Positions 4,794 to 7,212 are shown, counted from the first letter of the stretch. The stretch: DNA of 19,508 nt from an uncultured Thioalkalispiraceae bacterium (GCA_964420605.1 CAYQUC010000062.1:1-19508), one strand, 5' to 3'. Notes: generated from the sequence alone by a model not told the origin. Made by a program: numbers and translations.

Positions 4794-5744
4794 ATGGACA
4801 AAATATTATTAAATGAAATAATTGCTTGTATGCCAAAGGATAGAACTATTTTTCCGTATTTTAAGGGACGTTATGCGTTGATGCTGTTAAAAAACATTAT
4901 TGGTGAGAGTACTTCCATAGCTAACATTAGAAAAACGTCATTCGCTGCTTTATTAGATAAGCCAGAGGTTAAACTGGCATTAGCGATGGCGGGTAAGGGG
5001 CTGCTTACACCGGATATCTTAAATAGTGTATGGCCTGAAGAATCTTACCAGTTTATTCTTACCGTAGGACGTTGGGGCAGTAATAGTTATGGCGGAGACC
5101 AGACCTCACGTCGAGGTTATAATTTGGTGTTACAGCTCAATTTTTCGAAACAACACGATAACGTGTATAACAATATGGTTAAACCCAACAAGGAATCATT
5201 ATTAAATTATTATGCTCATCCAATATTAGAGTTGAATGAACGAGACTATTTTCGAGAAACATTAGCCTGGTCACGTATTGATTTGGATTTTACTAAGGAT
5301 GAGGCTTTAATCGAAGAAGTTCAAAGCGACTGGTTGCGTCGAGCAAAAAGGTTATTACGCTCAGCACAATTTTATAAAAAGCATAATAGTAAAATGGTGA
5401 CTCGTTGGAATGTTAATGGTGAGGTGGATGATGTTATTCAGTATTGTGAAAAAATATTATCACCGTATAACAAAATATGGTCAGAAGCCATGTTAGCGGC
5501 AACCATTGAATTTATACAAAATGAATTAGGAATTAATACTATTTATTATCATACAGAAAGTACCGGTTATCGAGTTAAAAAAATTAAATATACTCAACCA
5601 CCACGTTCTTTATATAGTAAATTACCAAATAAATTTTGTTTTTCAGAAACCCAGGATGCGCCTGAGTTTTTAAAACAGGATAAAACTTTTAATCGAGGTT
5701 ACAAAAAAGTGAGTAACCCACAATGGTACCGCATGGCGGTATAG
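4794..5744 (+). CDS. Hypothetical protein (~316-319 aa), first gene of the apparent rtcB operon. No recognisable domain.
   Basis: Long ORF on the same strand. The start may be GTG 4785 or ATG 4794, and the RBS is weak. Its stop overlaps an AGGAGG SD for the next small ORF. No GGQ, nucleotide-binding or HTH motifs were found by eye. Confidence 0.6.
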
Positions 5745-5752
5745 GAGGTGTA

Positions 5753-5995
5753 TTGTGTGCAAATATTATTATACTGATCAGGGATATTCCTTTTGAGACA
5801 ACAAGTAAACGACGAAAAGGCTATCCATCTGAAACGAAGGTAAAGAAGGGTATCCGAATTATAAATGGTAATAAATATTTGATCGAAAAATTGGGTCGTA
5901 ATGATTTGTGTGTTTGTAATTCCGGTCGTCGATTTCAAAAATTGTTGCTTAGCAACGAAAAAATTCGATGGCTCTTTACGTCACGATTATTTTAG
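5753..5995 (+). CDS. Putative small protein (~80 aa, TTG start; ATG 5723 alternative) with a degenerate SEC-C-like '[13 protein letters not shown]' motif.
   Basis: A strong AGGAGG at 5744-5749 lies 4-5 nt before the in-frame TTG at 5753. The ORF fills the 270-nt gap between the upstream ORF and rtcB. Coding status is uncertain. Confidence 0.25.
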
Positions 5996-6015
5996 AGAGT
6001 AAACAGGATACAATA

Positions 6016-7212
6016 ATGCCAATTAAAACATTAATTACAAAAGGTAAAGTACCAGTCAAGATCTATACTGATGATATTGAGCACCAAGCATATCAACAGT
6101 TATTAAATATATCTCAGTTACCTTTTATACACAGTCATGTTGCCGCCATGCCTGATGTGCATTTTGGAAAAGGTGCAACAGTGGGCTCGGTAATACCGTG
6201 CAAGGGCGCTATTATTCCAGCTGCTGTTGGGGTTGATATTGGCTGTGGTATGAATGCCTTACGATTATCGATTAAAGCCGACGATTTACCGGATAATTTA
6301 CATGGAATACGCTCCGCTATTGAAGCGGCTATTCCTGTGGGTTTTAATATGCATAAAACCGATAAAGCCCGAAACTCAACCATTCGTGCGTTATCCCCAG
6401 GATTAAATTATTTATTGCAGAAGCATCCAAAACTGTTAAAAATGCAAAAGAAACCCGCTCAAACCTGGGTGCGACAGTTAGGTACTTTGGGTGGCGGTAA
6501 TCATTTTATCGAGTTATGCATTGATGAAAATAGCGATGTGTGGATAATGTTGCATTCTGGTAGTCGAGGTGTCGGTAATATCATTGGGCAGTATTTTATT
6601 CGTTTAGCGCAAAAAGACATGGGCAAACACCTTATAAACTTACCTGACAAAGATTTAGCGTATTTTAATGAAGGAGCAGAACATTTTGACGACTATGTTA
6701 GTGCTGTTCATTGGGGGCAGGATTATGCGATGGATAACCGTCGTGAAATGATGCGTTTAATTGTGATTGCTTTAAAGAAACAGTTACCGTTGTTTGGTGT
6801 CACCAAGGAAGCAATAAATTGTCACCATAATTACGTGTCGATTGAGAATCATTTCGGTGAAAATGTATACATTACCCGAAAAGGCGCAATTCGTGCTGGT
6901 GAAGGTGAACTGGGCATAATTCCGGGCAGTATGGGTGCTAAATCGTTTATTGTTAAAGGTAAGGGTAATCCGGAGTCGTTTTGTTCTTGCTCGCATGGTG
7001 CCGGTAGAAAAATGAGCCGAGCAAAAGCTAAACGTGAATTCAATCAGTACGATTTAGAACAACAAACCTTAGACGTTGAATGTCGAAAAGACAAATCTGT
7101 AATCGATGAGATTCCAGCAGCATATAAGGATATTGATGTTGTGATGGCAAATCAGAGTGATTTGGTTGAAGTGGTGCATACACTAAAACAGGTTGTTTGT
7201 GTTAAAGGCTAA
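6016..7212 (+). CDS. rtcB: RNA-splicing ligase RtcB (3'-phosphate/5'-OH RNA ligase), 398 aa.
   Basis: Hallmark RtcB motifs are present: MPDVHFGKGATVGSVIP, GGGNHFIEL, HSGSRGVGN, NCHHNY, IPGSMGAKSFIV, CSHGAGR. It is collinear with E. coli RtcB from 'MPIKTLITKGKVPV'. The listed 5968 start is likely a 16-codon over-extension. Confidence 0.95.
   Translation: MPIKTLITKGKVPVKIYTDDIEHQAYQQLLNISQLPFIHSHVAAMPDVHFGKGATVGSVIPCKGAIIPAAVGVDIGCGMNALRLSIKADDLPDNLHGIRSAIEAAIPVGFNMHKTDKARNSTIRALSPGLNYLLQKHPKLLKMQKKPAQTWVRQLGTLGGGNHFIELCIDENSDVWIMLHSGSRGVGNIIGQYFIRLAQKDMGKHLINLPDKDLAYFNEGAEHFDDYVSAVHWGQDYAMDNRREMMRLIVIALKKQLPLFGVTKEAINCHHNYVSIENHFGENVYITRKGAIRAGEGELGIIPGSMGAKSFIVKGKGNPESFCSCSHGAGRKMSRAKAKREFNQYDLEQQTLDVECRKDKSVIDEIPAAYKDIDVVMANQSDLVEVVHTLKQVVCVKG

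Follow-up and report, generated by a model that had tools for sequence, protein, structure and literature searches.

In a 19,508-nucleotide (nt) stretch of DNA (the window) from an uncultured Thioalkalispiraceae bacterium (GCA_964420605.1, CAYQUC010000062.1:1-19508), the gene of the RNA ligase RtcB is preceded on the same strand by a gene for a protein without recognisable domain, which we call P316, and by a small gene with a SEC-C zinc-finger motif (Table 1). P316 is very probably a functional partner of RtcB. The linkage of the two is far above chance expectation; RtcB directly adjoins P316 in 38 of the 56 genomes compared. The SEC-C gene would be intact and decoded by a programmed +1 frameshift resembling that of prfB. 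We consider it reasonably likely that positions 189–7212 constitute one translation-damage response module, with P316 as a dedicated RtcB partner and the SEC-C gene decoded by frameshifting. The parts of this module are a Band-7 gene with a b7a-type tRNA-like RNA, a short array of spare tRNA genes with an HNH gene and a helix-turn-helix (HTH) regulator, and the RtcB ligase unit.

To our knowledge, the targets of bacterial RtcB and the way in which it finds its substrates are largely open, and the main clues are its partners RtcA, archease, Ro60/Y RNA, PrfH and RlaP. P316 is a concrete and testable addition: a single compact protein with a conserved cluster resembling an active site, co-encoded with RtcB in most carrier genomes.

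P316 and its linkage to RtcB

The P316 open reading frame (ORF) runs from a GTG at 4785 to 5744 and has the 319 codons given in the initial annotation; the family alignments begin at ATG 4794, which yields a protein of 316 amino acids. Homologs were collected with a word-indexed search (730 proteins) and with an exhaustive HMMER search (841 representatives of 50%-identity clusters). All are ∼ 310–330 amino acids long and none carries an additional known domain. The family is basic (median isoelectric point, pI, 9.2) and its alignment has 42 invariant columns. P316 has no match in Pfam, NCBIfam, PADLOC or PHROGs, nor by profile search of the PDB, and the 33 family members inspected gave neither a recurrent weak Pfam match nor any GNAT family at E values up to 10. 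No relatives were found among IMG/VR viral contigs, and a phage origin was discarded on this ground.

For the neighbourhood comparison, 80 loci were taken from species-representative genomes (456 relatives detected) and compared with the window proteins. Linkage statistics refer to the 56 species-representative loci with at least 1.5 kb on either side of P316. An RtcB ortholog (60–85% identical) lies within 6 kb in 43 of these (77%), and the immediate, same-strand adjacency mentioned above amounts to 68%. This bears out the original proposal that the protein is a conserved RtcB partner and not a housekeeping gene that happens to lie nearby. In the wider locus set RtcB is near P316 at 63 of 85 loci. 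The adjacency spans Gammaproteobacteria, some Beta- and Alphaproteobacteria, Desulfobacterota and others, with Microbulbifer marinus and M. taiwanensis as cultured carriers; most of these gene pairs have no Band-7 gene.

The third member of the conserved unit is a small basic protein with a PLLRKGGVH motif (hereafter RKGGVH protein), not the SEC-C gene. It is encoded at 41 of the 56 P316 loci (73%); 35 loci have both RtcB and RKGGVH, and 7 have neither. The dominant order is RtcB-P316-RKGGVH, with rtcB-P316 gaps down to 3–6 nt. Among all 86 loci, 60 contain the RKGGVH gene (cluster C3), and in 46 of those it starts a median of 13 nt past the P316 stop codon. A paralog of RbfA (Pfam RBFA, E 4.6e-11) is found upstream of rtcB in 19 loci, and the usual P316 unit across genomes is (RbfA-like)-RtcB-P316-RKGGVH with very short gaps. 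The closest relatives of the window have the inverted order (P316 followed by RtcB) and retain the linkage; in the window itself the RKGGVH gene is displaced into the tRNA array, ∼ 3 kb upstream of P316. The RKGGVH protein has invariant G23, G24, H26 and R34 and a pI of 10.45, and it has no Pfam or PDB match. A role as an ArfA-like rescue factor found no support: hhalign gave a probability of 0.5% against an unverified E. coli ArfA sequence, and none of 24 members matched Pfam ArfA.

RtcB is unambiguous, as had been claimed. It matches Pfam PF01139 from end to end (E 8.8e-131, model positions 1–426 of 426) and has relatives in the PDB at E 6e-36 to 6e-27. Read by eye, the translation contains DVHFGKG, GGGNHF, HSGSRG, HHNY and SHGAGR, which we take to be the motifs of the catalytic histidine nucleophile and of metal binding. 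The extein part of the NCBIfam model NF052663 (‘intein-containing RtcB’) matches the window RtcB with 454 bits, and an ortholog (locus L037, 4000–5727) contains an insertion of ∼ 450 nt; from these sequences, the RtcB clade of the window and L037 seems to be a frequent intein host. At loci L002–L004, from a 5.6-Mb JGI genome, a MerR-type HTH gene and an IS605-type TnpB insertion separate rtcB from P316, and in L004 rtcB is split over four ORFs.

An AlphaFold2 model of P316, with the 33 homologs as input, is confident, with a predicted local distance difference test score of 90.5 and a predicted template modelling score of 0.91. The initial description of a protein without recognisable domain agrees with the sequence libraries. 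A Foldseek search of the PDB returned no significant match, its weak ones being to GNATs. A viral structure library likewise gave nothing significant, the weak matches again being GNATs, and in all, two structure-comparison methods and three libraries returned solely GNAT-type folds. At the position of the GNAT acyl-CoA pyrophosphate loop (β4–α3), P316 has an invariant EE(I/V)QSDW in all 33 aligned members; D163, H121, H142, H253, C12 and C282 are also invariant. In contrast to the GNAT superfamily, P316 has no sequence-model match and no Q/RxxGxG/A CoA loop (33 aligned members, by inspection only), and it possesses an extra N-terminal domain, insertions and an invariant acidic/His/Cys set that is foreign to GNATs. 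The model suggests that P316 has a remote GNAT-like fold with a different polar cluster, which is probably catalytic, and we do not class it as a GNAT acetyltransferase. An assignment as a PD-(D/E)xK nuclease (motif D163...E175-x-Q177) was dropped, the fold searches having returned GNAT-like matches alone.

A divergent P316 subfamily (P0206, P0225 and P0255; loci L177–L179, 5001–6206) carries a basic, Gly-rich N-terminal extension of ∼ 85 amino acids with the sequence GGMGG(R/K)LG. Its gene follows a murA-like gene and its stop codon overlaps the start of a ThiF-family gene; RtcB is not nearby. The extension might have been a fused RKGGVH protein, for which hhalign gave no support. We also considered whether P316 and the small SEC-C ORF are one disrupted gene and rejected this, as the homologs, with lengths in the range given above, all end where P316 ends.

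The SEC-C gene and a predicted +1 frameshift

As described in the initial annotation, the TAG stop codon of P316 overlaps a perfect AGGAGG that feeds a small ORF. This ORF is open from 5723, and we take its start to be the in-frame TTG at 5753, from which frame 0 runs for 80 codons to 5995. The gap to the rtcB ATG (6016), reported as 21 nt, is 20 nt by our count, and the stop codon of the predicted shifted product lies further downstream. The frame-0 product contains CVCNSG and matches Pfam SEC-C (PF02810) with 20.4 bits, exactly at the cutoff, over model positions 1–15 of 19. Its motif had been called degenerate. We find instead a complete motif that is interrupted by a conserved +1 shift site: a +1 shift at TTT_C (TTT 5933–5935, C 5936) supplies a CC pair and the conserved C-terminus, and the shifted reading satisfies PF02810 as CxCxSGx5CC. 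The +1 frame ends at TAA 6000–6002, 13 nt before the rtcB ATG, and the product from TTG 5753 has 82 amino acids.

Orthologs of the gene are either in frame (L055, L082: ...RKFKNCCMR..DGS.R.HYF), broken at the Phe codon at which the window is broken, or broken at a second Phe codon 10 codons further on. The in-frame orthologs score 38.5 bits against Pfam SEC-C. The reconstructed products align without gaps, and a profile built from them spans the first shift site in its match to the zinc-binding domains of YchJ-C and SecA, whose structures are solved (E 6.7e-9). After the shift, K50, C52, C53, D60, R64 and Y67 are invariant while the DNA varies synonymously; judged by this pattern, the +1-frame continuation is under purifying selection.

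The best 80 of 563 metagenomic relatives, together with the genome loci, gave a set of 83 genes. A +1 shift is required in 75 of them, at one of the two Phe codons; these homologs are related and the counts are not independent events, which tempers our interpretation. The shift falls at site 2 only in 36 genes, at site 1 only in 29 and at both sites in six; four further genes have the site-1 shift and a 3′ part that could not be parsed. Six genes are wholly in frame, two are incomplete with no evident shift, and none requires −1. The junctions are TTT_TGA (30), TTT_TAA (20), TTT_CAA (16), TTT_CGA (6) and TTT_TAG (3), so that the A-site codon is a stop in 53 and CAA or CGA in 22. UUU_Y is present at 39 of 39 site-1 and 36 of 41 site-2 junctions, the remaining five site-2 parses being unclear. 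In every cleanly parsed junction TTT is followed by a pyrimidine, as expected if tRNA-Phe (anticodon GAA) re-pairs on UUY, and a particular tendency of UUU_Y to shift +1 has been reported (PMC5009743). Where a gene is in frame at one of the sites, its codon there is mostly TTC or TAC. A Shine-Dalgarno-like 4-mer ending 2–6 nt upstream was found in 21 of 39 site-1 shifted genes, compared with 2 of 43 in-frame genes.

These features are consistent with a programmed frameshift of the prfB type. As in prfB, a U-rich codon would allow the P-site tRNA to re-pair in the +1 frame, the frame-0 codon in the A site is a stop in most homologs, and many site-1 genes have a Shine-Dalgarno-like element a few nucleotides upstream. 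Unlike prfB, the shift codon is UUU (tRNA-Phe) and not CUU, two alternative sites occur in one gene of 70 amino acids, about one-third of the genes, including that of the window, have a sense CAA or CGA in the A site, and the product is a zinc finger where that of prfB is a release factor. With ∼ 90% of homologs needing +1 at UUU_Y, at either of two sites, this would be a rare case of conserved bacterial +1 recoding, and we found no description of it in the literature searched. Annotation misses or truncates such genes. Given its occurrence in translational-damage loci, the recoding could link decoding status to a repair response.

Other origins of the shift were also considered. Transcriptional slippage is unlikely, as the runs are merely T3–T4. 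Decoding by a tRNA with a four-base anticodon was rejected: related arrays do contain unusual tRNAs, but no anticodon among them fits UUUY, and the majority of SEC-C loci lack tRNA genes altogether. A stimulatory downstream RNA structure was rejected as well, shifted and in-frame genes showing no difference in this respect.

In the window, a palindromic hairpin GTTGC-TTA-GCAAC is located at 5944–5956, 8 nt past the shift site; its stem is kept in L011 (GTTGC-CTC-GCAAC). The double-shift genes (L043, ∼ 5762–5880; L081, ∼ 7169–7290; L122, L145, L149 and L160) need two successive +1 shifts ∼ 10 codons apart, with UUU_UAA or UUU_CAA as the first junction and UUU_UGA or UUU_CGA as the second. A homolog on a 532-kb IMG/VR contig (L169, ∼ 5076–5190) has T7 at site 2 and requires −1 (or +2), which could reflect either a different way of recoding or an error in the homopolymer. 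The homolog of a Candidatus Manganitrophus plasmid (CP114562.1; L166, 7001–7150) is unannotated, its match ends at the first shift site, and it is flanked by an integrase gene and SIR2/ATPase defence-like genes.

SEC-C genes often lie directly 3′ of tRNA arrays, for example of 34 tRNA genes in 3.5 kb (L114, 443–3942) and of 10 (L155, 2490–3901), and in 12 metagenomic loci the gene immediately precedes a Ro60/TROVE-like gene. L128 (4328–6094) is a further example of a SEC-C locus near a tRNA array or a Ro60/TROVE-like gene. These contexts tie the SEC-C gene to several kinds of RNA-repair locus, RtcB being one.

Proposed role and alternatives

The best functional analogy for P316 and the RKGGVH protein (together with the RbfA-like protein) is the ribosome rescue and repair pair PrfH–RtcB2 (Tian et al., PNAS 2022, cited in PMC12776372; PMC6514570), a two- or three-gene unit that joins RtcB to a factor recognising damaged translation machinery. 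Unlike that pair, the window has no release-factor domain, and its RtcB scores 143 bits against the PrfH-type model TIGR03073, below the cutoff of 271.8.

We propose that a ribonuclease would cut tRNA or 16S rRNA, leaving 2′,3′-cyclic phosphate and 5′-OH ends that RtcB would reseal. P316 and the basic RKGGVH protein may be a target-directed accessory pair that either recruits RtcB to damaged RNA or ribosomes or modifies the substrate or junction. We infer an accessory role for P316 because it is basic, has a GNAT-like fold in the model and carries an invariant acidic/His cluster at the acyl-CoA site of GNATs; any specific biochemical role is tentative, and each one taken singly is doubtful. 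The frequent RbfA paralog would point to the 30S subunit as one target. In the SEC-C gene, the P-site tRNA-Phe would move from UUU onto UUY with a stop codon, or CAA in the window, in the A site, and the frameshift would make production of the full zinc finger depend on the decoding state and the occupancy of the A site. The spare tRNAs, the Band-7 protein and the tRNA-like RNA would act as described for related systems (see below).

Several points weigh against this reading. In about one-quarter of the genomes, Beggiatoa leptomitoformis among them, no RtcB lies near P316, and the divergent subfamily adjoins murA-like and ThiF-family genes and not RtcB; the function of P316 is therefore not strictly RtcB-dependent. 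The missing CoA loop counts here too. The SEC-C gene accompanies P316 in just 8 of 86 loci and RtcB is present at only 5 of 80 metagenomic SEC-C loci. Of the trio originally proposed, the P316-RtcB pair is conserved and the three-gene unit is rare. The window has the sense codon CAA in the A site, and the efficiency of the shift may therefore be low. The terminator-like hairpin at 4733–4756, whose 10-bp stem has five GC pairs and precedes TATTTTAAAT, may make P316, SEC-C and rtcB a separate or attenuated transcription unit, uncoupled from the Band-7 part. Any activity, ligand or partner of P316 is putative, and the recoding of the SEC-C gene is predicted from sequence alone. Finally, part of the finding may already be contained in Burroughs & Aravind 2016 (NAR 44:8525).

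A bolder interpretation goes beyond the damage-response module. P316 and the RKGGVH protein, often with the RbfA paralog, would be an unrecognised arm of a bacterial RtcB repair pathway that recognises or modifies its target, the ribosome or tRNA, and is functionally analogous but unrelated to PrfH, and the SEC-C gene would be the second widespread chromosomal +1 gene after prfB and a sensor of decoding failure. Full-length SEC-C protein would be made when the A site is empty, through slow termination or through loss of tRNA-Gln(UUG) or tRNA-Arg(ICG), and it would serve tRNA-array, Ro60 and RtcB repair loci. As a whole, we think this unlikely.

It is improbable that P316 is an enzyme that modifies tRNA or tRNA-like RNA, or uses aminoacyl-tRNA, and prepares or protects the array tRNAs or the b7a-type RNA, with RtcB as a merely co-regulated neighbour. 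The GNAT-like fold of the model would suit such an enzyme, and a tRNA array and a tRNA-like RNA belong to the same module. TmcA, Elp3, FemX and L/F-transferase are precedents for GNAT folds acting on tRNA or aminoacyl-tRNA. Translational coupling of the divergent subfamily to a ThiF-family gene also fits, and the ThiF family includes the tRNA cyclic threonylcarbamoyladenosine (ct6A) dehydratase. Marginally less probable is an archease-like activator that speeds guanylylation or turnover of RtcB and neither recognises nor modifies RNA. Archease is a precedent for a dedicated RtcB cofactor; the window encodes none, and P316 strictly adjoins RtcB in most genomes. Against this, P316 resembles archease neither in fold nor in sequence, occurs without RtcB in ∼ 25% of genomes and in the ThiF-linked subfamily, and has an invariant polar cluster that looks like an active site.

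A little less probable again is a GNAT-type toxin of the TacT/AtaT/ItaT kind that acetylates aminoacyl-tRNA, with the RKGGVH protein as antitoxin or modulator and RtcB and the spare tRNAs as a recovery arm. The predicted fold, the tightly coupled small gene (median gap 13 nt), the tRNA and translation context and a taxonomic distribution suggestive of mobility agree with this. However, P316 has no PADLOC match, no acetyl-CoA loop and, in 33 members, no Pfam GNAT signal; its length of 316 amino acids and its extra N-terminal domain set it apart from the GNAT toxins of ∼ 170 amino acids; the RKGGVH protein is basic and encoded downstream, whereas ribbon-helix-helix (RHH) and HTH antitoxins are encoded upstream; and the family was not found in viral contigs.

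That the SEC-C ORF is a decaying pseudogene or a sequencing or assembly error, and the P316-rtcB adjacency local synteny of a single lineage, has a negligible chance of being correct in spite of the short T/A-rich stretch at the shift and the uncultured source organism: it is refuted by the shift counts, which over many environments are always +1 at one of two Phe codons with UUU_Y at all clean junctions and conserved residues downstream, and by the linkage counts, the adjacency spanning several phyla and classes.

The module and its relation to known RtcB loci

The trio of P316, SEC-C and rtcB is the 3′ end of a module of ∼ 7 kb that begins near position 189. The extent originally given to the operon missed the upstream Band-7, tRNA-like RNA, tRNA array, HNH and HTH genes. 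Between P316, the small ORF and rtcB we found no terminator-like and no convincing promoter-like site on the + strand; a separating signal of this kind had been named at the outset as a possible refutation.

Table 1. Features of the 189–7212 module (window coordinates).
Feature	Position	Strand	Remarks
HTH (XRE/DicA-like) regulator	189..824	-	divergent to module; NCBIfam DicA subfamily E 2.2e-4, weak Pfam HTH_3
tRNA-Asn(GUU), array member 1	1449..1523	+	CCA encoded; ARAGORN; Rfam tRNA 54.8 bits
RKGGVH protein, 64 amino acids, basic	1594..1788	+	cluster C3; motif RN..H.HPLLRKGGVH.K
tRNA-Pro(UGG)	1811..1888	+	CCA encoded; ARAGORN and Rfam
tRNA-like gene, aberrant anticodon arm	1903..1973	+	CCA encoded; Rfam tRNA 50.6 bits; no ARAGORN call
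Conserved 58-amino-acid protein	1991..2167	+	cluster C16, 7 closely related loci
tRNA-Gln(UUG)	2189..2263	+	CCA encoded; ARAGORN and Rfam
HNH endonuclease	2323..2892	+	Pfam HNH_5 E 4.6e-17, HNH E 1.5e-12; cluster C15, 8 loci
b7a-type tRNA-like RNA with ∼ 100-nt 3′ extension	3091..3262	+	ARAGORN, Rfam, alignment across loci
SPFH/Band-7 protein	3529..4680	+	Pfam Band_7 E 3.2e-22; AAGGAG ahead of ATG 3529
Terminator-like hairpin and T-rich tail	4733..4766	+	between Band-7 gene and P316; hairpin itself 4733-4756
P316	4794..5744	+	conserved RtcB-associated protein; remote GNAT-like fold (model)
AGGAGG Shine-Dalgarno	5743..5748	+	overlaps P316 stop TAG 5742-5744; 4 nt ahead of TTG 5753
SEC-C zinc-finger gene, 82 amino acids via predicted +1 shift	5753..6002	+	frame 0 5753-5935, +1 frame 5937-6002
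RtcB RNA ligase (3′-phosphate/5′-OH)	6016..7212	+	398 amino acids; Pfam RtcB PF01139

The locus matches the published Band-7/b7a-tRNA/RtcB and tRNA-array stress systems. That RtcB is associated with a Band-7 protein and a ‘b7a-tRNA’ is attributed to Burroughs & Aravind (2016) in bioRxiv 10.1101/312249. By that account, the window shares with the system an RtcB near an SPFH/Band-7 gene, a tRNA-like RNA just upstream and no RtcA or RtcR. It differs in two respects: Band-7 and RtcB are separated by P316 and the frameshifted SEC-C gene, and a tRNA array with HNH and HTH genes is present in addition upstream.

HNH genes are typical neighbours of long tRNA arrays, and in Anabaena long arrays with HNH share their regulation with rtcB when translation is under stress (PMC8421152). 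The TrcR regulon comprises trn, HNH, rtcB, a slipin gene and GNAT genes (PMC10272220). Slipin/Band-7 and GNAT genes and a dedicated repressor are features of the Anabaena array system, and the window likewise has a same-strand tRNA array with HNH, a linked rtcB, a Band-7 gene and its own regulator. Unlike in Anabaena, where the components are scattered over the genome and the regulator is of the RHH type, they are contiguous in the window, the regulator is HTH/DicA-like and the array has 4–5 tRNA genes (13–20 in relatives). Long arrays are defined by roughly 10–43 tRNA genes, far above accretive arrays; that of the window is shorter, and it has the linked HNH and rtcB genes. Compared with classical rtcBA/RtcR loci (E. 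coli, Salmonella), the ligase family and presumably the chemistry (3′-phosphate or 2′,3′-cyclic phosphate plus 5′-OH) are the same, whereas the RtcA cyclase and the sigma-54 activator RtcR are missing and the partners differ. A scan of the window ORFs of at least 100 amino acids found none of RtcA, RtcR, archease, Ro60 or PrfH, as expected from the non-canonical context proposed at the outset.

The locus type is thus already known. What appears to be new is that P316 and the RKGGVH protein are the RtcB neighbours found most consistently in these lineages, that a remote GNAT-like fold is predicted for P316, and that the SEC-C gene shows a putative conserved +1 recoding. The papers on tRNA arrays and TrcR (PMC8421152, PMC10272220) do not mention P316 or the RKGGVH protein.

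The window array (1449–2263) consists of 4–5 same-strand tRNA or tRNA-like genes interleaved with the genes of the 64- and 58-amino-acid proteins; the latter has no match in Pfam, NCBIfam or PHROG. Band-7-carrying relatives have same-strand arrays of 20 (L010), 19 (L051) and 13 (L009) genes within the 6-kb flank. The anticodon arm of the tRNA-like gene at 1903–1973 looks truncated (CAUG-AUU-CAUG), and the gene may be a non-decoding tRNA or a pseudogene. ARAGORN reports ‘anticodons’ of two or four bases, in unusual anticodon loops, for tRNA-like array genes of L051 (7269–7341), L087 (1637–1724) and L141 (4409–4484).

The b7a-type element at 3091–3164 is a ‘Leu-UAA’ without long variable arm. 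In 11 loci, homologous tRNA-like elements precede the Band-7 gene by 300–540 nt; their D and T arms are conserved and their anticodons differ. Alignment and folding showed that the ∼ 100-nt 3′ extension (3165–3262) is kept elsewhere, including L009, L010, L011 and L043, and that it contains a hairpin with a GNRA cap, a second hairpin of the T-arm type (GCGGTTCGAnTCCGC, about 3203–3219) and a CGGGAAA..CCCG hairpin. Because of this conserved extension, the Band-7-associated RNA may be larger than a tRNA. Orthologs of the Band-7 protein, whose gene is on the same strand as rtcB and 1.3 kb upstream of it, are present in 15–16 related loci.

The HTH regulator also matches PHROG transcriptional repressor families, and orthologs (cluster C11) hold the equivalent position in 10 related loci. 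The other window ORFs encode TPR/O-antigen-ligase-like proteins, pilins, ZapD, CoaE, PilD, PilC and PilB. Between the HTH gene and the tRNA array (1084–1173) there is a promoter-like site, TCGACA-17-GATAAT (10 of 12 matches), and downstream of it a strong terminator-like hairpin, identified by eye, at 1140–1166 (CCCCGTTA...TAACGGGG, then T7); together they could specify a leader or a small RNA.

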